25,074 bases of DNA from IMG/VR virus record IMGVR_UViG_2684622619_000026; one strand, written 5' to 3'. Numbering within the stretch: position 1 is the stretch's first letter; each line of letters opens with the position of its first letter. This DNA is from a virus (taxonomy: Duplodnaviria > Heunggongvirae > Uroviricota > Caudoviricetes). Shown one piece after another: positions 3,901 through 25,074 of this stretch. The translations under genes were made by a program, and so were the position numbers. The notes beneath the pieces are model-generated. The model saw only the letters and a program-made list of their open reading frames with translations. It made no database searches and was not told the origin of the DNA.

Positions 3901-4172
3901 GTATTCGTATTGAAATTGGCGAACGTTATGTCGTTACCAGTGACAGCTTTCAGTTTATTCTCCACGAGAAAAAGAGAGCGGAAAGCGGTAAAAACGCCGG
4001 TCAGGAATGGCTGGCGGTGGTTGGTTATTACCCGAAATTAAGCCAGCTCGTTTCCGGCCTGATGCATCACGATATTCTGACCGGAAGCGCAAAGTCTTTT
4101 GCTGATTTAAACGCGCAGGTTGAGCAACTCAGCAAGCGTTGCTCAGAGGCTTTTGGCTCATATGGCCGTTAA
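3897..4172 (+). CDS. hypothetical early protein (P2 orf83-position)
   Basis: 91-aa ORF, start overlaps the stop of the upstream gene; 3' end overlaps the start of gene A. Confidence 0.55.
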   Translation: MSIRIEIGERYVVTSDSFQFILHEKKRAESGKNAGQEWLAVVGYYPKLSQLVSGLMHHDILTGSAKSFADLNAQVEQLSKRCSEAFGSYGR

Positions 4173-6444
4173 AGCCTCCGGGCGTTTTGTCCCTCCGTCA
4201 GCATTTGCTGCAGGCACCGGTAAGGCGTTTACCGGTGCTTATGCATGGAACGCGCCACGCGAGGCCGTCGGGCGCGAAAGACCCCTTACACGTGACGAGA
4301 TGCGTCAGGTGCAAGGTGTTTTATCCACGATTAACCGCCTGCCTTACTTTTTGCGCTCGCTGTTTACTTCACGCTATGACCACATCCGGCGCAATAAAAG
4401 CCCGGTGCACGGGTTTTATTTCCTCACATCCACTTTTCAGCGTCGTTTATGGCCGCGCATTGAGCGTGTGAATCAGCGCCATGAAATGAACACCGACGCG
4501 TCGTTACTGTTTCTGGCAGAGCGTGACCACTATGCGCGCCTGCCGGGAATGAATGACAAGGAGCTGAAAAAGTTTGCTGCCCGTATCTCATCGCAGCTTT
4601 TCATGATGTATGGGGAACTCAGTGATGCCTGGGTGGATGCGCATGGCGAAAAAGAATCGCTGTTTACGGATGAGGCGCAGGCTCACCTCTATGGTCATGT
4701 TGCTGGCGCTGCACGTGCTTTCAATATTTCCCCTCTCTACTGGAAAATATACCGTAAAGGGCAGATGACCACGAGGCAGGCATATTCTGCCATTGCCCGT
4801 CTGTTTAACGATGAGTGGTGGACTCATCAGCTTAAAGGCCAGCGTATGCGCTGGCATGAAGCGTTACTGATAGCTGTCGGGGAGGTCAATAAAGACCGTT
4901 CTCCTTATGCCAGTAAACACGCCATTCGTGATGTGCGTGCGCGCCGCCAGGCAAATCTGGAATTTCTTAAATCGTGTGACCTTGAAAACAGGGAAACCGG
5001 CGAGCGCATCGACCTTATCAGTAAGGTGATGGGCAGTATTTCTAATCCTGAAATTCGCCGGATGGAGCTGATGAACACCATTGCCGGTATTGAGCGTTAC
5101 GCCGCCGCAGAGGGTGATGTGGGGATGTTTATCACGCTGACCGCGCCGTCAAAGTATCACCCGACACGTCAGGTCAGAAAAGGCGAAAGTAAAACCGTTC
5201 AGCTTAATCACGGCTGGAACGATGAGGCATTTAATCCAAAGGATGCGCAGCGTTATCTCTGCCGCATCTGGAGCCTGATGCGCACGGCATTCAAGGATAA
5301 TGATTTACAGGTCTACGGTTTGCGTGTCGTCGAGCCACACCACGACGGAACGCCGCACTGGCATATGATGCTTTTTTGTAATCCACGCCAGCGTAACCAG
5401 ATTATCGAAATCATGCGTCGCTACGCGCTCAAAGAGGATGGAGACGAAAGAGGAGCTGCGCGAAACCGTTTTCAGGCAAAACACCTTAACCGGGGCGGTG
5501 CTGCGGGATATATCGCGAAATACATTTCAAAAAACATCGACGGCTATGCACTGGATGGTCAGCTCGATAACGATACCGGTAAGCCGCTTAAAGATACTGC
5601 CGCGGCTGTTACCGCATGGGCGTCAACGTGGCGCATTCCGCAATTTAAAACGGTTGGACTGCCGACAATGGGGGCTTACCGTGAACTACGCAAATTGCCT
5701 CGCGGCGTCAGTATTGCTGATGAGTTTGACGAACGCGTCGAGGCTGCTCGCGCTGCCGCAGACAGTGGTGATTTTGCGTTGTATATCAGCGCGCAGGGTG
5801 GGGCAAATGTCCCGCGCGATTGTCAGACTGTCAGGGTCGCCCGTAGCCCGTCGGATGACGTTAACGAGTACGAGGAAGAAGTCGAGAGAGTGGTCGGCAT
5901 TTACGCGCCGCATCTCGGCGCGCGTCATATTCATATCACCAGAACGACGGACTGGCGCATTGTGCCGAAAGTTCCGGTCGTTGAGCCTTTGACTTTAAAA
6001 AGCGGCATCGCCGCGCCTCGGAGTCCTGTCAATAACTGTGGAAAACTCACCGGTGGTGATACTTCGTTACCGGCTCCCACACCGACTGAGCATGCTGCAG
6101 CGGTGTTAAATTTAATAGATGAAGGGATTCTAAGTTGGACCGAGCCAGGCATTATGAAGGTACTTAGAGACTTATTGAGTAATGAACTGAAATGCAGTAA
6201 TCGTTCACAGCAGAGCTTTACCCCTTTCAATGGTCGAAGCTACTTTCCTGCCCCATCCGCCCGGTTGACAAGGCAGGAGAGAAAGACTATCCCGAAAATT
6301 AAGGTTCTTCTTGCACAAAGTGACATTCAGGCTAGTTATTGGGAGCTTGAAGCTCTCGCTCGCGGAGCTGTTTTGGATTTTGGGCATAAGCGTTTTAAAT
6401 TTGATAACGATATCGACTTTTTTGACAGACAGCGTGAGTGGTAG
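4162..6444 (+). CDS. A: rolling-circle replication initiator endonuclease A (HUH family)
   Basis: Start taken at the internal Met (MAVKASGRFVPP) rather than the ORF-track start at 4120; HUH-type motif HHDGTPHWHMMLF and tyrosine motif GYIAKYISKNIDGY; about 760 aa as for P2 gpA. Confidence 0.9.
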   Translation: MAVKASGRFVPPSAFAAGTGKAFTGAYAWNAPREAVGRERPLTRDEMRQVQGVLSTINRLPYFLRSLFTSRYDHIRRNKSPVHGFYFLTSTFQRRLWPRIERVNQRHEMNTDASLLFLAERDHYARLPGMNDKELKKFAARISSQLFMMYGELSDAWVDAHGEKESLFTDEAQAHLYGHVAGAARAFNISPLYWKIYRKGQMTTRQAYSAIARLFNDEWWTHQLKGQRMRWHEALLIAVGEVNKDRSPYASKHAIRDVRARRQANLEFLKSCDLENRETGERIDLISKVMGSISNPEIRRMELMNTIAGIERYAAAEGDVGMFITLTAPSKYHPTRQVRKGESKTVQLNHGWNDEAFNPKDAQRYLCRIWSLMRTAFKDNDLQVYGLRVVEPHHDGTPHWHMMLFCNPRQRNQIIEIMRRYALKEDGDERGAARNRFQAKHLNRGGAAGYIAKYISKNIDGYALDGQLDNDTGKPLKDTAAAVTAWASTWRIPQFKTVGLPTMGAYRELRKLPRGVSIADEFDERVEAARAAADSGDFALYISAQGGANVPRDCQTVRVARSPSDDVNEYEEEVERVVGIYAPHLGARHIHITRTTDWRIVPKVPVVEPLTLKSGIAAPRSPVNNCGKLTGGDTSLPAPTPTEHAAAVLNLIDEGILSWTEPGIMKVLRDLLSNELKCSNRSQQSFTPFNGRSYFPAPSARLTRQERKTIPKIKVLLAQSDIQASYWELEALARGAVLDFGHKRFKFDNDIDFFDRQREW

Positions 6445-6533: not shown

Positions 6534-7757
6534 ATGAGCATGGTTGAATGGATAAGCCACGAGAAAAAAGATAGCCTGATACTATTTGTACATGGATTAA
6601 ATGGTGGTTTGGAAACATGGAACTTTAATAAAGAAACTTCATTTCCAAAACTATTAGCAGAAGATGAAGACATTGGCAATGTATTTGATATTGCATGTTT
6701 CAATTATTTCACCAAATTTACACAAACGTATGCTAAAACGTCAGGATTATGGGCTCGTATTTTCTCTAAGAAAAATAAGTTAGAGAGAAATTTACCAACT
6801 GATGAAATAGCTGAGTTATTGTATACTGAGATTAGGGTAACGCTAAGTGATTACTCTCGAATTATAATAATCGCCCATAGTATGGGGGGGGTAATATCAA
6901 AAAATCTAATTCTAAAAAAAGTTGAGCATGAGGAACAATCTAATATAATTGGATTCATTTCGTTAGCAGTCCCTCACTTTGGTGCTAAATTGGCGAATAT
7001 AACTTCAATGGTATCTTCAAATGCTCAGTTAGTAGATCTTGGATTGTTAAGTGAAGCGACCGATACGTTGAATAGGCGCTGGATAAATTGTAGCAAAAAA
7101 CTTCCTATCACTAGATATGTTTATGGTTCTCATGACACTATAGTTGATAAAAAAAGCGCATTACCGATGGATAGTGAACGAAATAACTCAATTGCAGTTA
7201 ATGAAGGGCATAGCTCAATTTGCAAGCCCGAAAACAGCTCGTCTACAGTGTTTGTTGCGGTAAAGCAATTTATTCAGCAGATAAATTTAGAAGCACCCAA
7301 GAAGATATGTGTTGAGCGTTTTTCTGATGAGAAACAATATGATAATGAGTATTTCGTCTTAAAAATGATTGTCGCAGATATACATCAGGATATCGCTATG
7401 CATGCAAAGGAATATTATTATAATGCTGAGCTTGCGAGAAATATTTTTACGAGTGATTACGATAGGAAACTACTTGGTCATTTGTATTCTAAAATAAGGG
7501 AGATTTACCAGGAAGAGTATGAGCAATATATCGCGAATTCAATTTCCCCAGATAAATTTATTGCTGCTGTTCATAGACGAATAGCCCAAGAGGATAAGTC
7601 GTCGTTAGATTCTCTTATAAAAAGTTTAGAAACGATACATAAGAAAGGAATGTTGCATCAACTGGCTAACAAAAATGACAGGGATATTGTCTGGTCATCT
7701 GAAACCAGCGTAGAAACTTTGGAGCAATTACGGCGAGGTAATCATGAAGAAAAATAA
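6534..7757 (+). CDS. alpha/beta-hydrolase (serine esterase/lipase-like) effector candidate with C-terminal helical domain; first gene of cargo cassette
   Basis: 407 aa; LILFVHGLNGG (oxyanion-hole-like HG) and nucleophile elbow IIIAHSMGGV (G-x-S-x-G) in the N-terminal ~230 aa; candidate Asp (GSHDTIVD) and His (NEGHSSI); C-terminal ~170 aa charged and helical; about 33% GC versus >50% for the backbone. Confidence 0.7.
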   Translation: MSMVEWISHEKKDSLILFVHGLNGGLETWNFNKETSFPKLLAEDEDIGNVFDIACFNYFTKFTQTYAKTSGLWARIFSKKNKLERNLPTDEIAELLYTEIRVTLSDYSRIIIIAHSMGGVISKNLILKKVEHEEQSNIIGFISLAVPHFGAKLANITSMVSSNAQLVDLGLLSEATDTLNRRWINCSKKLPITRYVYGSHDTIVDKKSALPMDSERNNSIAVNEGHSSICKPENSSSTVFVAVKQFIQQINLEAPKKICVERFSDEKQYDNEYFVLKMIVADIHQDIAMHAKEYYYNAELARNIFTSDYDRKLLGHLYSKIREIYQEEYEQYIANSISPDKFIAAVHRRIAQEDKSSLDSLIKSLETIHKKGMLHQLANKNDRDIVWSSETSVETLEQLRRGNHEEK

Positions 7758-8256
7758 CTTGCCGTATATTCCTCTTGATGAAGAGTATAGCTTGAATTTT
7801 GCTATGCTTGCCATTGCTATATCTATATTATCTCATAGCAAAAAAGGAGTGTTATCATTAGATATTAATAAAATACAAATTTTTATGTATCTGATAAAAA
7901 ACCCATCAAAAATTGATTATGCTCTTACAGTTTCGGGGAAAAAGCCTGCTTGTGTCGAGTCCCAGTTAACTTATACAATAAAGAGTTTTTCAACAAATGT
8001 AGATATCTTATTCGACAATTCCAAAGTGAAATATCTTATAAAAATTATGTCATTGCGGGGATTGCTCTCAGCTGAGAAAAAAAATAATGAGAGTGTTAAA
8101 TTATTTTTATCTGAAAAAGGTAAGGAATTTGCTAGCTCATTGACTGATGGATATTTTAAAGAAATAAAACGACTATCCGAAGCATTGTTACCGCTACAAG
8201 CATTGCCTACCTCTAAGTTAAACTCTGTTATAAATCAAGTCTTCAAGGAGAAATGA
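7744..8256 (+). CDS. small protein, middle gene of cargo cassette (putative adaptor)
   Basis: 170 aa; GAGG SD 5 nt upstream; start overlaps the upstream stop by 14 nt and its stop overlaps the downstream start (ATGA); no recognisable catalytic motif; AT-rich. Confidence 0.65.
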   Translation: MKKNNLPYIPLDEEYSLNFAMLAIAISILSHSKKGVLSLDINKIQIFMYLIKNPSKIDYALTVSGKKPACVESQLTYTIKSFSTNVDILFDNSKVKYLIKIMSLRGLLSAEKKNNESVKLFLSEKGKEFASSLTDGYFKEIKRLSEALLPLQALPTSKLNSVINQVFKEK

Positions 8257-10223
8257 TGAAATCATATCTCAATATCAATAGTTTGATTCTTGTTGGCGTT
8301 CGTAAAAACTACGTCACTACTTTTTATAAAGGTCTCAATGTTATCTACGGAGACTCTGACACAGGTAAGTCAAGCATTCTGGAGTTTATTAATTATCTTT
8401 TAGGTGCTAGCTCTATAGATTTAGCAGATGAAATAAAAACATCAGTAAACTATGCTGCTCTTGAAGTAGTGATCAATGATACTGTATTCACAATCGTAAG
8501 AGATATCTATGATCATAAAAAAGCAATAGAAGTTTATCGTTGTAAGTTTGATGATTTACATAAACATTTTCCGAAAAAATACGCTCCTAATTATAGCCCA
8601 TTATCAAATGTTGATGGTGTTTTTTCGGAGTTTTTACTTGATAGTCTTAATTTTCCAAAGATTGAAATTAAGGTGTCTCCTTCTAAAGCTCATTCACAGA
8701 TGCGCAGGTTAAGTTTTAGAAATATATATAAATTTGTTTATGTAAGTCAGGATGATATTGGTAGTAAATCTTTCTTGCGATTGGGTGATTGGTCCCGCTA
8801 CGCATTTACGAAAGAAGTTTTTAAATACATGTTCAATGTGTTGGATGAAAGCATCGCCAGACTCCAAGGTGAAATATCTGCAAAAAGTAGTTTAGTAACG
8901 GAATTAAATAGGAAGTATCAGATAATATCTGAATTTCTTCGCGATACAGACTATGAAACGATTGAATCAATTGATGATGAGATTAATAGGATAGATCTTG
9001 TTTTAGAAGAACTTGTTGCAGGTTTGTCTGCTCTCGATAAAAATATGAAAGCGGATTCCATACAGTATACAGAATTGAAAGATGCTCACAATTTTATTTC
9101 GCTTAAATACAAAGAGTGCATATTAAATATTACTGCGCTTGAGGATAAGATTGATAAATATTCGCGGTTAAAAAATGACTATGATAATGATATTGAAAAA
9201 CTCAAAGCGATTAAAACAGCAAATTCTCGCATTGGTGTATTGGATAAGGAAGTATTTTCCTGTCCAGTCTGTGATAGCCACATTAAAATAGATGATTCTG
9301 ATTTTCCATTTGAAATTTCATCAGAAAAAGATCTTAATGAAGAGTTGAATTCACTTAGTCGACGTAGACGAAATATTAATGACATGATCTCAGAAATGTC
9401 ATTTAAATTAAAAAAAGAATCAGGTTATAAAAAGGAATTAGATGAACGACTTGACGAGTTGAGAGAATTGATTGACGAAGAAAGCCAGTCAATGATTACA
9501 CCATTCTTGACTCAGAGAGATTTTTATATTAAAGAGATCTCAAAAAATGAGAAGGTTAGGGAGCAGTTAGTAAAAGATTTGAAGGTTAGAAACCAGCAAG
9601 AGGAACTGCTTGAAAAGTATCAGGTACTGAGAAAAGATATTGAAGCATTAACTGAACGCTTGGAGGCGTTAAAGAAAAACGCACCTAGCATGGAGGGCAT
9701 TTTACAAGGTTTGGGTGATAGATTTAGTCAGTATTTGAAGGGTATTAATATCAAAAACAGAACGGGGATAAAAATCTCTGAAAGCTATTACATTCCTGTT
9801 ATAAGAGAAAAAGAATATTTTAAAATAACATCCGGAGGTTTGAGAACTATTTCTTCTATTGGGTATCTTTTGTCTATTCTTGATTATGCAATAGATCATA
9901 ATGTTAACCATCCTTTACTTTTGATATTTGATACGGTTGGCAAATATTTAGGGAAACAGACCAAGGAAAAATATTCAAAAGAAACTCTTGCATTCGAGGA
10001 TGACCTTGAGGGAATGTCAGATCCGATGAAGTATCAAAATATTTATGAACAACTATTGAATACAGTTCAAAAAGCAGAAAGAAAAAATGTTCCGTGCCAG
10101 ATTATATTAGTTGATAATGATTTGCCTAATTCGTTTTCTACTGGTGAACTTTCGAATATTATCGCTCATTATAGCTCGGTTGGTGAGGACGGTTTGCCTT
10201 TAGGTTTAATTGATGACCTTTAA
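8253..10223 (+). CDS. SMC/Rad50-like ABC ATPase with central CxxC motif; third gene of cargo cassette
   Basis: 656 aa; N-terminal Walker A GDSDTGKSS; long heptad-like charged middle region; CPVC near residue 337 (mid-protein); C-terminal TSGG signature-like motif followed by hydrophobic-D LLLIFDT (Walker B-like) and ILVDND. Start may be the ATG at 8256 (better spacing from AAGGAG). Confidence 0.75.
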   Translation: MMKSYLNINSLILVGVRKNYVTTFYKGLNVIYGDSDTGKSSILEFINYLLGASSIDLADEIKTSVNYAALEVVINDTVFTIVRDIYDHKKAIEVYRCKFDDLHKHFPKKYAPNYSPLSNVDGVFSEFLLDSLNFPKIEIKVSPSKAHSQMRRLSFRNIYKFVYVSQDDIGSKSFLRLGDWSRYAFTKEVFKYMFNVLDESIARLQGEISAKSSLVTELNRKYQIISEFLRDTDYETIESIDDEINRIDLVLEELVAGLSALDKNMKADSIQYTELKDAHNFISLKYKECILNITALEDKIDKYSRLKNDYDNDIEKLKAIKTANSRIGVLDKEVFSCPVCDSHIKIDDSDFPFEISSEKDLNEELNSLSRRRRNINDMISEMSFKLKKESGYKKELDERLDELRELIDEESQSMITPFLTQRDFYIKEISKNEKVREQLVKDLKVRNQQEELLEKYQVLRKDIEALTERLEALKKNAPSMEGILQGLGDRFSQYLKGINIKNRTGIKISESYYIPVIREKEYFKITSGGLRTISSIGYLLSILDYAIDHNVNHPLLLIFDTVGKYLGKQTKEKYSKETLAFEDDLEGMSDPMKYQNIYEQLLNTVQKAERKNVPCQIILVDNDLPNSFSTGELSNIIAHYSSVGEDGLPLGLIDDL

Positions 10224-10540: not shown

Positions 10541-11575
10541 TCAGCCGTTGTCAGTGTCCAGTGAGTAGTTTTTAAAGCGGATGACCTCCTGACCGAGCCA
10601 GCCGTTTATCTCGCGGATCCTGTCCTGTAGCGGGATAAGCTCATTGCGGACAAAGACCTTTGCCACTTTCTCAATATCACCCAGCGACCCGACGTTCTCC
10701 GGCTTGCCGCCCATCAACTGAAAGGGGATGCGGTGCGCGTCCAGCAGGTCAGCGGCGCTGGCTTTTTTGATATTAAAAAAATCGTCCTTCGTTGCCACTT
10801 CACTGAGCGGGATAATTTTAATGCCGTCGGCTTTCCCCTGCGGGGCATAGAGAAACAGATTTTTAAAGTTGTTGCGGCCTTTCGACTTGACCATGTTTTC
10901 GCGAAGCATTTCGATATCGTTGCGATCCTGCACGGCATCGGTGACGTACATGATATATCCGGCATGAGCGCCGTTTTCGTAATACTTGCGGCGGAACAGC
11001 GTGGCCGACTCATTCAGCCAGGCAGAATTAAGGGCGCTGAGATATTCCGGCAGGCCGTACAGCTCCTGATTAATATCCGGCTCCAGCAGGTGAAACACGG
11101 AGCCGGGCGCGAAGGCTGTCGGCTCGTTGAAGGACGGCACCCACCAGTAAACATCCTCCTCCACGCCACGGCGGGTATATTTTGCCGGTGAGGTTTCCAG
11201 TCTGATGACCTTACCGGTGGTGCTGTAACGCTTTTCCAGAAACGCATTACCGAACACCAGAAAATCCAGCACAAAGCGGCTGAAATCCTGCTGGGAAAGC
11301 CACGGGTGCGGAATAAACGTTGAAGCCAGAATATTACGTTTGACGTAAATCGGTGAGCTGTGATGTACGGCAGCACGCAGGCTTTTTGCCAGACCGGTAA
11401 AGCTGACCGGTGGCTCATACCATCTGCCGTTACTGATGCACTCGACGTAATCCAGAATGTCACGGCGGTCGAGTACCGGCACCGGTTCACCAAAGGTGAA
11501 TGCCTCCATTTTCGGGGCGCTGGCGGTCATTTTTTTTGCCGCAGGTTGCGGTGTTTTCCCTTTTTTCTTGCTCAT
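10541..11575 (-). CDS. Q: portal protein Q
   Basis: 344 aa; N-terminus MSKKKGKTPQPAAKKMTASAPKMEAFTFGEPVPVLDRRDILDYVECISNGRWYEPP recognised as P2 gpQ-like; ATGA overlap with the upstream P gene. Confidence 0.9.
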   Translation of the reverse strand: MSKKKGKTPQPAAKKMTASAPKMEAFTFGEPVPVLDRRDILDYVECISNGRWYEPPVSFTGLAKSLRAAVHHSSPIYVKRNILASTFIPHPWLSQQDFSRFVLDFLVFGNAFLEKRYSTTGKVIRLETSPAKYTRRGVEEDVYWWVPSFNEPTAFAPGSVFHLLEPDINQELYGLPEYLSALNSAWLNESATLFRRKYYENGAHAGYIMYVTDAVQDRNDIEMLRENMVKSKGRNNFKNLFLYAPQGKADGIKIIPLSEVATKDDFFNIKKASAADLLDAHRIPFQLMGGKPENVGSLGDIEKVAKVFVRNELIPLQDRIREINGWLGQEVIRFKNYSLDTDNG

Positions 11576-21680: not shown

Positions 21681-22284
21681 TTCGCGCCTGCTGCCGACCG
21701 GCTCATCACCGCTTGAAGTCGCCGCCGCAAGAGCCTGTGCGGAAATTGAAAAAACGCCGGTCAGTATTCGTGAGCTGTGGAACCCGGATACCTGTCCGGC
21801 AAATCTGCTGCCGTGGCTGGCGTGGTCATTTTCGGTTGACCGCTGGGATGATAAGTGGCCGGAAGCGACAAAACGCGCTGTTATCCGCGATGCGTATTTC
21901 ATTCACTGCCATAAGGGCACTATTGGTGCGATTCGCCGTGTGGTGGAGCCGCTCGGCTATCTGATTGAGGTGAGGGAGTGGTGGCAGCTCAACGAGGAGC
22001 CGGGGACGTTCCGCATCGTTGTTGGCGTGCTTGAGCAGGGTATTACCGAGGAAATGTATCAGGAGCTGGAGCGTCTCGTTGCTGATGCAAAACCTGCAAG
22101 CCGCCATCTGACGGGACTGGCTATCAGTTTAAGTACAACCGGCAACATTTTTGCCGGTGCGGGATGCTATCACGGCGACGCCCTGACGGTTTATCCCTAC
22201 ACCCCGGAGGCCATTATTGTCGGAGGGGATTATTTCCCGGCCTCGGCCATTCATTTAATTGATAACCTGAGAGTAAACGCATGA
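21673..22284 (+). CDS. I: baseplate protein I
   Basis: N-terminus MSDSRLLPTGSSPLEVAAA recognised as P2 gpI-like; overlaps J and H ends. Confidence 0.85.
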   Translation: MSDSRLLPTGSSPLEVAAARACAEIEKTPVSIRELWNPDTCPANLLPWLAWSFSVDRWDDKWPEATKRAVIRDAYFIHCHKGTIGAIRRVVEPLGYLIEVREWWQLNEEPGTFRIVVGVLEQGITEEMYQELERLVADAKPASRHLTGLAISLSTTGNIFAGAGCYHGDALTVYPYTPEAIIVGGDYFPASAIHLIDNLRVNA

Positions 22285-23665
22285 CAGTGAAATACTACGC
22301 CATTCTGACTAATCAGGGCGCGGCACGGCTGGCTAACGCGACGATGCTCGGCAGTAAGCTGAATCTGACGCAAATGGCCGTTGGTGATGCAAATGGTGTC
22401 TTGCCGACACCTGACCCGGCACAGACAAAACTTATTAACCAGAAACGCATCGCGCCGCTGAATCTTCTGAGTGTTGACCCGAACAACCAGAGCCAGATTA
22501 TTGCGGAGCAAATCATCCCTGAGAACGAGGGCGGATTCTGGATCCGTGAGATTGGGCTTTATGATGATGAAGGCGTACTCATTGCGGTGGCGAACTGCCC
22601 GGAAACGTACAAACCGCAGTTACAGGAAGGCAGCGGTCGTACCCAGACTATCCGCATGATTCTGGTTGTCACGAATACCGAAGCCATCACGCTGAAAATC
22701 GACCCGTCGGTGGTACTGGCGACCCGTAAATACGTGGATGATAAAGTCCTGGAATTAAGGCTGTATGTGGATGACCAGATGAGAAACCACATTGCCGCAC
22801 AGGATCCTCATACCCAGTATGCGCAGAAACATAATCCGACATTTACCGGAGAACCAAAAGCGCCAACGCCTGCCGCAGGAAATAACACCACGCGGATTGC
22901 GACCACTGAGTTTGTTCAGACCGCTATTACCGCTCTGATTAACGGCGCGCCAGACACGCTGGACACACTGAAAGAAATTGCCGCGGCCATTAACAATGAC
23001 CCGAAATTCAGCACCACCATTAACAATGCGCTGTCAGGTAAGCAGCCACTGGATGAGACGCTGACTCATTTGAGTGGAAAGGATGTTGCCGGTCTTCTCG
23101 CATACCTTGGTTTGGGAGAAGNNNNNNNNNNNNNNNNNNNNNNNNNNNNNNNNNNNNNNNNNNNNNNNNNNTTGGTTTGGGAGAAGGTTCGGCATTACCC
23201 GTTGGTGTGCCTGTTCCGTGGCCTTCAGCCACTCCGCCGACAGGCTGGCTGAAATGCAACGGGGCGGCTTTTTCTGCTGAAGAATACCCGGAACTGGCAA
23301 AGGTTTACCCGACAAATAAATTGCCTGATTTACGTGGTGAGTTTATTCGTGGCTGGGATGACGGACGTGGAGTGGATAACGGAAGGGGATTATTGACGCT
23401 TCAGGACGGTGCGATTGTCAGTCATAACCACTATTGGGGAATCTGGACTTCACGAACTAACGACCAGACTCTGGAAAGTTTTACAGGCACCACGATTTTA
23501 AAACAAATCACGCCCCTGTCTCCGGCCATTAACTTCGATAATTACCCAATTCCCAACCCGGCTATTACAGAGGGTGGTGTTGTTGCGGCAACGACTAAAC
23601 CTGCAGGTGCGAATGAAACACGCCCACGAAATGTCGCTTTTAACTATATTGTGAGGGCTGCATAA
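22281..23665 (+). CDS. H: tail fibre protein H (constant part 22281-23121 plus currently joined variable C-terminal segment 23172-23665; interrupted by a scaffold gap)
   Basis: Constant part ends ...AYLGLGE at the gap; after the gap the frame continues GLGEGSALPVGVPVPWPSATPP...; collapsing the 15-bp duplicate flanking the Ns gives a continuous in-frame gene. Confidence 0.8.
23122..23171. other. assembly/scaffold gap (50 N)
   Basis: Run of 50 N flanked on both sides by the same 15-nt sequence TTGGTTTGGGAGAAG (23107-23121 and 23172-23186). Confidence 0.95.
23174..23186 (+). repeat. left inverted repeat / candidate recombination crossover site
   Basis: GGTTTGGGAGAAG encoding G-L-G-E at the constant/variable junction of H. 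Confidence 0.6.
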
Positions 23666-24267
23666 TGAATAACGCAGAATTAAACAGTGAATTAATTGCC
23701 ACTATGGCAGGAGAAATTACTGTTTATAACTTTGATGTCATGAGTCGGGAATATATTTCAGCTTCAACTGAATATCTTGCTATTGGTGTCGGCATTCCGG
23801 CATATTCCTGTTTAGATGCCCCAGGCGCATACAAAGCTGGTTATGCAATCTGCCGTTCTGCAGATTTTAACTCATGGGAATATGTGCCAGACCATCGCGG
23901 TGAAATCGTCTTTAGCACCGAAACAGGAGAATCAAAAGAAATCACCGCTCCGGGTGATTACCCTGATAATACAACCACTATCGCCCCGTTAACGCCATAC
24001 GATAAATGGGATGGTGAGAAATGGGTGACGGATACCGAAGCACAGCATAGCGCCGCAGTAGAAGCGGCAGAAACACAACGCCAGTCGCTGATTGATACTG
24101 CAATGGCTTCCATTAGTCTGATTCAGCTGAAATTACAGGCCGGACGGAAGCTGACGCAGGCAGAAACCAACCGACTTAACACGGTGCTGGATTACATTGA
24201 CGCGGTGACGGCAACAGATACCAGCACCGCGCCGGATGTCATCTGGCCTGAACTGCCGGAGGCGTAG
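23665..24267 (+). CDS. G: tail fibre assembly chaperone G
   Basis: 200 aa immediately after the fibre gene (ATGA overlap); C-terminal LDYIDAVTATDTSTAPDVIWPELPEA resembles the conserved Tfa C-terminus. Confidence 0.85.
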   Translation: MNNAELNSELIATMAGEITVYNFDVMSREYISASTEYLAIGVGIPAYSCLDAPGAYKAGYAICRSADFNSWEYVPDHRGEIVFSTETGESKEITAPGDYPDNTTTIAPLTPYDKWDGEKWVTDTEAQHSAAVEAAETQRQSLIDTAMASISLIQLKLQAGRKLTQAETNRLNTVLDYIDAVTATDTSTAPDVIWPELPEA

Positions 24268-24682
24268 GCCATTCAATATCTGGCGCACTGGCGGTATCGA
24301 CCAGCTCCAGTGCGTCCAGATAATCCAGCCACAAATTATATTGTGCCAGTTCCTCACCTTTCAGACGACCAATAGCGGCTTTACCGGGCCATTGCTTACT
24401 GTTCATGTATTCGTTGGCCTGGTTAATTAGTAGCTGTCTTTCTGATTCAGTAATTTCAATAAGTTCTTCATGCGTGGGTGGAGGAATATCTGCCCACGCA
24501 GGCAGCCCATCATCTCCGGCAATACGGATTTTTCCTTGTGGCGGTTCAGCCATAAACTCACTGATAATATTTTGATTTACTTCCTTAGCGTCTGATAAAT
24601 CCCATCCCTCTGATTTATATTTATCAATCATATCCACAGGGAAAAAAGCATTATGCCTTGCGCTATAAACATATTCGTTCAT
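24239..24682 (-). CDS. alternative tail fibre assembly chaperone (Tfa-prime, partner of the minus-strand fibre segment)
   Basis: Start taken at ATG 24682 (MNEYVY...; AGGGTGA upstream); C-terminus LWLDYLDALELVDTASAPDIEWPTPPAVQAR parallels the C-terminus of G; converges on and overlaps G by 29 nt. Confidence 0.75.
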   Translation of the reverse strand: MNEYVYSARHNAFFPVDMIDKYKSEGWDLSDAKEVNQNIISEFMAEPPQGKIRIAGDDGLPAWADIPPPTHEELIEITESERQLLINQANEYMNSKQWPGKAAIGRLKGEELAQYNLWLDYLDALELVDTASAPDIEWPTPPAVQAR

Positions 24683-24702
24683 ATAAATCACCCTAAATAA
24701 AA

Positions 24703-25074
24703 TTACTCACCAACAGCCCACCAACTGTAATTCATCGATACCGTGTCGCTGGTTGATGACGTTCTGTAAGCAGAATTAAAGCCGGTTAACGTTGGGCCTT
24801 CTGCAGTCATCACGAACCCTCGCCCAGCGCCTAAAGGCGCACCGCCATCACCAGAATGAGTAAGCATGGCGCAGTCCGCTTTTTTGGGGAAAGGGATGCT
24901 GAATGTAATTCTCATTGTTTGCGTCGATAATGTCGGCGTAACCGCACCACGACCATATTGCAGGATTTTCCCGTTGGGTAATTTCATCCATCCATTACCA
25001 CTGGCAAAAGAGGCCATGTCCGGTATCTGATTTTCCCCTGTCCCCACATCCCGTTTTGCCGCTTCTCCCAAACC
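24703..25074 (-). CDS. alternative tail fibre C-terminal (receptor-binding) segment, promoterless, no own start; partial at window edge
   Basis: Minus-strand frame runs from the window edge (GLGEAAKRDVGTGENQIPD...) to a stop at 24703, directly followed by Tfa-prime; shares the G-L-G-E junction with the constant part of H. Confidence 0.65.
   Translation of the reverse strand, partial: GLGEAAKRDVGTGENQIPDMASFASGNGWMKLPNGKILQYGRGAVTPTLSTQTMRITFSIPFPKKADCAMLTHSGDGGAPLGAGRGFVMTAEGPTLTGFNSAYRTSSTSDTVSMNYSWWAVGE
25062..25074 (-). repeat. right inverted repeat / candidate recombination crossover site (truncated by window end)
   Basis: Reverse complement of the window's last 13 nt is GGTTTGGGAGAAG, in frame with the minus-strand alternative fibre segment. 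Confidence 0.6.

Follow-up and report, generated by a model that had tools for sequence, protein, structure and literature searches.

I found that positions 22281-25074 of the analyzed viral DNA (IMG/VR record IMGVR_UViG_2684622619_000026; the whole stretch of 25,074 nucleotides is called the window here) very probably hold a two-state invertible tail-fibre segment of the Pin/Gin/Cin type (Din family), carried by a P2-like prophage of E. coli O157:H7. This tail-fibre switch locus consists of the constant part of the fibre gene H (Sc), a 26-bp crossover site, and a segment of 1,903 bp. In the segment, two modules converge; a variable C-terminus of H (Sv) and its chaperone gene U lie on the plus strand, while an alternative C-terminus (Sv′) and its chaperone gene U′ lie on the minus strand. 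At the window end, the segment runs into a second site in inverted orientation, of which only the inner half is present. What was observed comprises the anatomy of the locus, H fusions that stay in frame, an adjacent intact invertase gene, canonical sites whose cores match, and both orientations occurring in nature. The features are as follows.

22281-23108, plus strand: Sc, the P2-type constant part of H; Pfam Phage_tail_fib N-terminal match (E=6e-63, measured on 22281-23121); ends ...AYLG at the crossover core
23095-23120, plus strand: left crossover site, pixL-like, TTCTCGCATACC-TT-GGTTTGGGAGAA; core TT at 23107-23108; complete in the window
23122-23171, no strand: scaffold gap of 50 N; artefact
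23172-23186, plus strand: contig-overlap duplicate, copying the 15 bp at 23107-23121; closed genomes are continuous here, with one copy
23174-23665, plus strand: Sv, the displayed variable C-terminus of H, StfE-like; Pfam Collar (2e-15)
23665-24267, plus strand: U, TfaE-like tail-fibre assembly chaperone for Sv; Pfam Caudo_TAP (1e-32)
24239-24682, minus strand: U′, tail-fibre assembly chaperone for Sv′; Pfam Caudo_TAP (9e-31, match region 24239-24691)
24703-25074, minus strand: Sv′, the alternative C-terminus of H, silent in the displayed orientation; Pfam Gp53-like_C (8e-13)
25063-25074, plus strand: inner half-site TTCTCCCAAACC of the right crossover site, TTCTCCCAAACC-AA-CGTTTATGAAAA; AA-CGTTTATGAAAA lies beyond the window end

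The left 23 kb of the window (1-23121) is 100% identical to complete O157:H7 genomes, and the segment is 99.9% identical. In the carrier, Pfam recognized the Phage_integrase, HTH_3, Phage_GPA, Phage_portal, and Terminase_6 families. In the RefSeq annotation, the genes for baseplate V, GPW/gp25, baseplate J, and tail protein I come first, and sheath, tube, gpE, and tape measure genes follow 3′ of the invertase gene. This arrangement matches the P2 order (V, W, J, I, H, and then FI sheath and FII tube after the fibre genes) of a P2-like (Peduovirinae) late tail operon. The carrier is apparently a complete P2-like myovirus prophage of E. coli O157:H7.

The Sc sequence is 100% identical to H of the O157:H7 genomes, in which the ORF encodes 439 amino acid residues in the orientation shown here or 399 residues when flipped. 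Sv is in frame with Sc after removal of the gap, while inversion at the core dinucleotide, carried out in silico, joins Sv′ to Sc in frame and yields the 399-residue H. Each tip of the two in-frame variants has a Caudo_TAP gene downstream. Sv shares 57.9% amino acid identity with StfE of e14 (the first ~210 nucleotides are 92% identical), and U shares 86% with TfaE. The start codon of U overlaps with the stop codon of H (ATAATG). The start of U′ was placed according to RefSeq (position 5511 in the complete-genome locus L001); an AGGGTGA sequence lies 7 nucleotides upstream of this ATG, and the C-terminal 112 residues of U′ are 53% identical to e14 TfaP. The convergent U and U′ genes overlap by 29 bp. 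An imperfect second inverted repeat of 18 nucleotides also exists in the 3′ ends of the chaperone genes. A promoter and terminator consensus scan of the segment gave 4 promoter-like sites versus 3.9 expected from shuffles, and the same scan gave no promoter-like site upstream of Sv′ in the spacer, which is weakly compatible with a promoterless minus-strand arm.

A preliminary description, made from the letters of the window, had read this region as an invertible cassette with two receptor-binding C-termini and their own chaperones, and the Pfam domains of all the parts and the convergence of the chaperone genes bear this out. It had also placed an invertase gene just past the window end. In the complete O157:H7 genomes, a gene encoding a 197-residue serine invertase indeed begins 70 bp beyond that point (L001 5973-6566); it was read from genomes 100% (left part) and 99.9% (segment) identical to the window. 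The protein is full length, with Resolvase (2.7e-52) and HTH_7 (4.7e-13) domains in Pfam. It matches Mu Gin (3UJ3) with E=1e-93 and conserves Ser9 in the context YVRVSTNDQ. Its amino acid identity is 86.7% to e14 PinE, 76% to Mu Gin, and 78% to Cin. Together with the right crossover site, which equals pixR, these values uphold the organization of Mu G, P1 C, and e14 P that had been proposed. In NCBIfam, no family-level name was obtained for the fibre parts, and the invertase gave sub-threshold matches only. Nucleotides 19-90 of the invertase gene correspond to the annotated enhancer of P1 cin and are conserved, but this conservation is confounded by coding constraint. Candidate Fis-type G-N13-C cores, a degenerate motif, lie at nucleotides 22-36 and 71-85 and are shared with pinE and gin; in a scan for a Fis pair common to gin, cin, and pinE, their spacing was 49 bp rather than 48 bp.

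Is the segment found in both orientations in nature? Among ~165 complete E. coli genomes carrying the prophage, ~76 have the flipped junction and ~82 have the junction as it is here, both at 100% identity. Once the segment is inverted precisely at the core in one of them, EC4115 and TW14359 agree at every position over 7.7 kb (0 differences), and the two strains share the same invertase protein accession. The switch is real and evidently active. PGAP calls H of EC4115 a pseudogene; since the sequence translates as an intact 399-residue fusion, this label is an annotation artefact.

The cassette might instead be a fossil with an invertible ancestry, whose switch no longer works and whose minus-strand arm is decaying. 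Many prophage invertible regions are degenerate, the e14 stfE gene carries a pseudogene annotation in K-12, and the PGAP label on EC4115 H would point the same way had it not proved artefactual. However, the ORFs of both arms are intact and give significant domain matches, the invertase retains its catalytic and HTH domains, and near-identical genomes are divided ~1:1 between the orientations with perfect exchange at the core. Thus, a fossil is very unlikely. The preliminary description had itself named the absence of a nearby recombinase, a repeat shorter than a functional crossover site, and a decayed minus-strand remnant as grounds for abandoning its reading. What was found is an intact serine invertase gene adjacent to the segment, a repeat embedded in a crossover site of the full 26 bp, and an intact arm that fuses in frame after inversion; the other orientation, for which it had asked, exists with 100% junction identity in complete genomes.

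One part of that description did not hold. It had counted two plus-strand copies of the repeat and one inverted copy, and the 50-N gap between the former had gone unnoticed. The inverted repeat stands, with 15 bp of perfect identity. Since the complete genomes have one plus-strand copy and the reading frame is broken across the N run, only one of the two plus-strand copies is real, the duplication having come from overlapping contig ends. The idea that the N run hides genuine sequence was rejected because its flanks overlap by 15 bp and the complete genomes are continuous. The contig breaks in the window fall where the perfect inverted repeat of 15 bp begins and ends. Thus, the displayed orientation was set by scaffolding and is arbitrary and uninformative. 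A 15-bp repeat is too short to break an assembly unless the reads held both junction versions; both were therefore presumably present, and I infer that the segment was switching in the source isolate.

Could the inverted layout and the repeat copies as a whole be an artefact of mis-joined contigs? The gap, the duplicated overlap of 15 bp, and the origin of the segment as a separate contig oriented by the scaffolder would favour this. However, such an artefact is limited to the duplicated repeat copy and the displayed orientation, while the segment, the sites, and the flanks are present without a gap in hundreds of closed genomes. As an account of the locus, it is highly improbable.

The sequence GGTTTGGGAGAAG occurs at 23109-23121 and 23174-23186 on the plus strand and at 25062-25074 on the minus strand. 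Three matches were seen in 0 of 100 dinucleotide-preserving shuffles (mean 0.04). The real repeat is the 15-bp perfect inverted repeat TTGGTTTGGGAGAAG, which lies within two imperfectly palindromic sites of 26 bp. In the left site, the inner half and the core are identical to published pixL (and also to pixR), while 3 nucleotides of the outer half are unlike those of pixL. The full right site (L001 5892-5917), whose outer half was taken from near-identical complete genomes outside the window, is identical to published e14 pixR at 26 of 26 positions. The left site has a TT core and the right site an AA core; inversion of one makes them the same, which is a requirement for religation. A third crossover site is absent, with no other half-site of two or fewer mismatches inside or beside the segment; at four other positions of the window (1006, 1989, 9554, and 9719), weak half-site matches occur that have no palindromic partner. 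Since there are only two sites in the locus, the switch has two states.

Inverted repeats can also recombine homologously, and host RecA rather than the invertase might drive the inversion; the imperfect 18-nucleotide repeat in the chaperone genes would also speak for this. Efficient RecA-dependent exchange in E. coli generally needs more than 15 bp of homology. The perfect repeat is just 15 bp, under the length usually needed, and the ~1:1 split implies a frequency far beyond what such homology would support, while the exchange point is a canonical 26-bp pix site beside a PinE-like invertase. RecA-driven inversion is therefore hardly conceivable here. Rci shufflons depend on the tyrosine recombinase Rci and 19-bp sfx sites; membership in the Min or Rci shufflon groups was rejected, because the locus has two sites only and its recombinase is a serine invertase. 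Multi-site shuffling among more than two tips, either p15B Min-like or of the three-repeat EPEC P2-like prophage type, is known among P2-like prophages (PMC4272514) but is likewise extremely improbable with just two pix-like sites in the locus.

In a two-state switch of the Din family, the serine invertase encoded immediately downstream would bind the two inverted 26-bp sites as dimers. By analogy, a Fis-bound enhancer, located within the 5′ end of the invertase gene, may join this complex. Both sites would be cut at the central TT/AA dinucleotide via Ser9, one half would rotate by 180 degrees, and religation would flip the 1,903 bp. The late-operon transcript (V-W-J-I-H) would then run from Sc into whichever arm faces Sc. 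In one state, it should produce the 439-residue H-Sv with a Collar tip, together with chaperone U, and in the other state the 399-residue H-Sv′ with a gp53-like tip, together with chaperone U′. A lysogen population may thereby release virions of two receptor specificities.

A more tentative proposal, which I consider possible but rather doubtful, is that the ~1:1 split in near-clonal O157:H7 reflects an invertase constitutively active in lysogens, that this invertase may then also act in trans on pix-like tail-fibre cassettes elsewhere in the genome, and that the gp53-like Sv′/U′ pair would be an uncharacterized receptor-binding module. In each genome, as many as 7 places show matches to parts of the segment, and trans action of an invertase has been suggested for EC958 Phi4 (PMC4134206). 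If this is true, the Sv′/U′ arm would give this P2-like phage a host range absent from P2 and e14.

The importance of the switch is mainly practical, and no new question is opened. It explains the breaks of draft O157:H7 assemblies at this locus and the scaffold gap with the duplicated 15-mer. It also explains why H in flipped genomes is called a pseudogene by automatic annotation, which lists the silent tip as a protein of its own, "hypothetical" or "gp53-like". In outbreak genomics, a difference in orientation at this locus reflects phase variation and should be kept out of the phylogenetic signal. The locus is one further case of host-range switching as bet-hedging, here by a P2-like prophage that a major pathogen carries, and pix sites identical to those of e14 illustrate how invertase/site cassettes are exchanged as modules among phages of unrelated types.

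Among known systems, the e14 P segment with PinE (E. coli K-12; stfP-tfaP / tfaE-stfE) is similar in its sites (right site equal to pixR over all 26 bp, inner half and AA core equal to pixL), in the homology of the Sv and U arm to StfE and TfaE, in the 86.7% identical invertase, and in the convergent chaperones with the 29-bp overlap and an invertase gene immediately downstream on the plus strand. However, e14 is a defective lambdoid element while the present carrier is a P2-like myovirus, and the constant part here is P2 H-type (Phage_tail_fib) rather than the StfP N-terminus. The gp53-like tip and U′ are unlike StfP and TfaP (Sv′ is 26% identical to StfP), the outer half of the left site departs by the 3 nucleotides, the invertase is 13 residues longer at the C-terminus, and the segment is 1,903 bp versus ~1.83 kb in e14. 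Thus, the locus was rejected as the e14 P segment itself, since one arm only is homologous and the carrier is P2-like; it is a different element with the same workings and pix sites.

The Mu G/Gin and P1 C/Cin systems have the same layout of Sc-Sv/U versus Sv′/U′, 26-bp sites, a serine invertase of 76-78% identity whose gene lies beside one site, and an enhancer-equivalent region at the 5′ end of that gene. The core equals that of cix (AA) and differs from that of gix (GA). The tips and the constant part are unrelated in sequence to S of Mu and P1, and the segment is 1.9 kb here versus 3.0 kb in Mu and 4.2 kb in P1.

Switching in culture was shown for the prophages Phi1, Phi2, and Phi4 of EC958 (Forde 2014, PMC4134206) and for P2-like prophages of EPEC E2348/69 (Goldberg 2014, PMC4272514). 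These share the prophage setting, the 26-bp sites, and a Collar-domain variable tip; there too, contigs of the alternative orientation break assemblies and the silent fragment is mislabelled by automatic annotation. The sites of EC958 Phi2 (..ACCTT GGTTTAGGAGAA / ..AAACGTT GGTTTGGGGGAA) closely resemble those found here, while the prophage and tip sequences are unlike. In the literature searched, no read-level demonstration was found for the present O157:H7 prophage, and two O157 comparative-genomics papers (PMC4321836 and PMC5552260), which treat only large chromosomal inversions, do not describe the inversion here. "Escherichia phage P2" from O157:H43 T22 (KC618326) has 92.3% nucleotide identity over 93% of the H-to-invertase stretch and an annotated "phage DNA invertase", and in pro483 (KR073661), a 97.4% identical copy of the 1.9-kb segment lies on the opposite strand. 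Neither is identical to the present module, and pro483 differs in the constant part or flanks. The kind of mechanism is already known from Mu G, P1 C, and e14 P, and in E. coli prophages from Forde 2014 and Goldberg 2014.

The preliminary description proposed an invertible tail-fibre cassette, in which the constant part of the tail-fibre gene H can be joined to either of two tips, each with its own chaperone (below, Sv with U and Sv′ with U′). The observation was found to be real, and the interpretation was supported in every testable respect. The ORF calls gave the layout that had been claimed, with each assignment backed by a Pfam match:

22281-23121, plus strand: H constant part (Phage_tail_fib N-terminal, 6e-63)
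23174-23665, plus strand: Sv tip (Collar, 2e-15)
23665-24267, plus strand: U chaperone (Caudo_TAP, 1e-32)
24239-24691, minus strand: U′ chaperone (Caudo_TAP, 9e-31)
24703-25074, minus strand: Sv′ tip (Gp53-like_C, 8e-13)

Each tip has its cognate chaperone gene behind it. The stop codon of H overlaps with the start codon of U (ATAATG), and an AGGGTGA Shine-Dalgarno-like element lies 7 nt upstream of the U′ ATG. The chaperone genes converge, with an overlap of exactly 29 bp (window 24239-24267), and both strands of this overlap encode the conserved C-terminal ...APD(V/I)(I/E)WP... motif. Near the overlap, an 18-nt imperfect inverted repeat (5015-5032 and 5141-5158 of L001, the reference O157:H7 locus record) encodes the LDY(I/L)DA motif of both chaperones. 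A promoter scan gave nothing over background and no site resembling a promoter ahead of the silent Sv′ arm, which is loosely compatible with its description as promoterless.

The 13-mer GGTTTGGGAGAAG occurs three times in the window (23109-23121 and 23174-23186 on the plus strand, 25062-25074 on the minus strand); three matches were seen in none of 100 dinucleotide-preserving shuffles (mean 0.04). The reported copies were thus all recovered, but a run of 50 N at 23122-23171, a scaffold gap, had gone unremarked. The 15 bp TTGGTTTGGGAGAAG flanks the run on both sides (23107-23121 and 23172-23186), and the run interrupts the H reading frame. In complete genomes, this repeat has a single copy and H runs uninterrupted for 439 aa. 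Thus, only one of the two plus-strand copies is real; the duplicate is the overlap of two contig ends in the scaffold, and the frame break is artificial. Of the 15-bp perfect inverted repeat, the inner end is exactly where the left contig stops and the outer end exactly where the segment contig starts; the other end of the segment contig lies inside the opposite repeat, 2 nt short. At 15 bp, a repeat is much too short to cause a break in a modern assembly by itself, and breaks at such points are what an assembly graph produces when reads support both junction versions. The contig ends at the limits of the perfect repeat suggest that the sequenced culture held both orientations. Thus, the displayed orientation was the scaffolder's choice; it is arbitrary and uninformative on the biological state.

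The longest inverted repeat of the locus is a 27-nt pair, which resolves into two 26-bp imperfect palindromes:

Window 23095-23120: left crossover site, TTCTCGCATACC-TT-GGTTTGGGAGAA
L001 5892-5917: right crossover site, TTCTCCCAAACC-AA-CGTTTATGAAAA (the window has only the first 12 nt, 25063-25074)

The right site equals the published pixR of the e14 P segment at 26 of 26 positions (Table 3 of PMC3241671). In the left site, the inner half-site and core are identical to those of pixL, and the outer half differs at three positions (PMC3241671). The top-strand cores, TT and AA, become the same dinucleotide upon inversion; without matching cores, the ends could not be religated once rotated by 180 degrees, as established for serine invertases (PMC3798978). 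A third crossover site was looked for in the locus and none was found, and thus the switch is a simple two-state one.

An invertase gene had been predicted just beyond the window. In complete genomes, a gene for a 197-aa 'recombinase family protein' starts 70 bp past the window end (L001 5973-6566). Its product has the Pfam domains Resolvase (2.7e-52) and HTH_7 (4.7e-13), and matches the sequence of the Mu Gin crystal structure over residues 1-182 (E=1e-93), conserving the Ser9 context YVRVSTNDQ. Its identity with e14 PinE is 86.7%, with Gin 76% and with Cin 78%. Judged by sequence, the gene is shown to encode an intact PinE-like invertase. The stretch equivalent to the enhancer annotated in P1 cin (nt 19-90 of the invertase gene), a candidate enhancer here, is conserved, a conservation confounded by coding constraint. 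It has G-N13-C cores at nt 22-36 and 71-85, common to pinE and gin, but their spacing is 49 bp and the motif is degenerate.

The carrier prophage is P2-like, with integrase, HTH repressor, gpA, portal and terminase genes, then V, W, J, I and H and, past the switch region, sheath, tube, gpE and tape-measure genes. E. coli O157:H7 strains, e.g. TW14359 and Rafaela_II, carry a prophage with 100% identity to window 1-23121; at 80% coverage or more, this stretch is present in about 165 of 5,426 complete E. coli genomes. In the segment 23172-25074, identity to the O157:H7 copies is 99.9%. The two mismatches (window 24970 and 24996) both fall in the silent Sv′ arm; one is synonymous (Gly) and the other is an Asp-to-Asn change in ...SG(D/N)GWMK.... 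Matches to parts of the segment occur in 3,166 of the 5,426 genomes, where one genome has as many as 7 matching places; 235 of the places are on plasmids. Thus, tail-fibre tips and chaperones of this type recur very widely among unrelated prophages and plasmids. Elsewhere in the window, the P2 cargo slot, flanked by gpA (4120-6444) and the portal gene (10541-11575, minus strand), is occupied by a Lamassu / ABC-3C anti-phage defence system of three overlapping plus-strand genes at 6534-10223:

Within 6534-10223, plus strand: LmuA, 407 aa, alpha/beta-hydrolase DUF676 + CTD8 (PADLOC 3.5e-108)
Within 6534-10223, plus strand: LmuC, 170 aa, MC4 (1.5e-52)
Within 6534-10223, plus strand: LmuB, 656 aa, SMC-like ATPase (1.5e-235)

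Does the segment flip? When the 1,903 bp between the two cores were reverse-complemented in silico, H stayed in frame (...AYLGLGE|AAKRDVGTGENQ...WWAVGE*, 399 aa). A 700-bp query across the hypothetical flipped junction (coverage at least 80%) was found in 76 complete genomes, with 99.9-100% identity among the matches listed, and the junction as displayed was found in 82. Together, the two junction types make up almost all of the roughly 165 carriers, in roughly equal shares. With its segment flipped at the core, the TW14359 locus equals that of EC4115 at every one of 7,700 bp; over the compared 7.7-kb locus the flip is the only difference between the two strains, which share one invertase protein accession. 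Both orientations thus occur naturally among complete genomes, and this direct comparison of sequences indicates that the switch is active.

In flipped genomes, RefSeq splits H (L003 3024-4223, the EC4115 locus) into a 'partial pseudogene' and a 'gp53-like domain-containing protein', an artefact caused by the switch. The 399-aa ORF is intact, and the 'pseudogene' label of H in EC4115 was rejected as an annotation artefact. In genomes oriented like the window, RefSeq calls the silent Sv′ fragment a 136-aa protein (L001 5532-5942, equal to window 24703 to about 25113, minus strand); its ATG is not part of the invertible segment but of the spacer that precedes the invertase gene, and this call is also an artefact of the switch.

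The data establish the anatomy, the two in-frame fusions, the intact invertase, the canonical sites and both natural states. By analogy with the family, invertase dimers on both sites would synapse with a Fis-bound enhancer. Both strands would be cut by Ser9 with a 2-bp stagger, and the segment would be inverted as the subunits rotate and the ends are religated. The P2 late transcript would express whichever tip and chaperone pair faces H.

Such switching has been demonstrated by reads and PCR in E. coli prophages, including P2-like ones (PMC4134206, PMC4272514). Forde et al. 2014 reported about 50% of reads per orientation, 26-bp sites, spurious contigs and mis-annotated silent fragments (PMC4134206), and the P2-like EPEC prophages described in Goldberg et al. 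2014 include a variant with three repeats (PMC4272514). My literature search found no paper describing inversion of this particular O157:H7 prophage. The first reading is corrected as to the N gap and the duplicated repeat copy, the true 26-bp sites with their pix identity, the arbitrary displayed orientation and the comparative evidence of an active switch. Systems of this kind are ordinary and well understood. The same module is present in two deposited P2-like phages with an annotated DNA invertase, KC618326 (92% identity) and pro483 (segment 97% identical, opposite strand). Mu G/Gin and P1 C/Cin have the logic in common, but not the fibre sequences. Of the known systems, the e14 P segment with PinE comes closest: pixR is identical, the invertase is 87% identical, the StfE/TfaE arm is homologous (TfaE 86% at the amino acid level), the convergent chaperone genes tfaP and tfaE also overlap by 29 bp (4518-4546 of the e14 locus, L005), and the invertase gene has the same position. 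However, the cassette here sits in a P2-like myovirus prophage and has a constant part of the P2 H type, and its second arm (gp53-like tip and U′) is a different module. Thus, the cassette and the e14 P segment are different elements.
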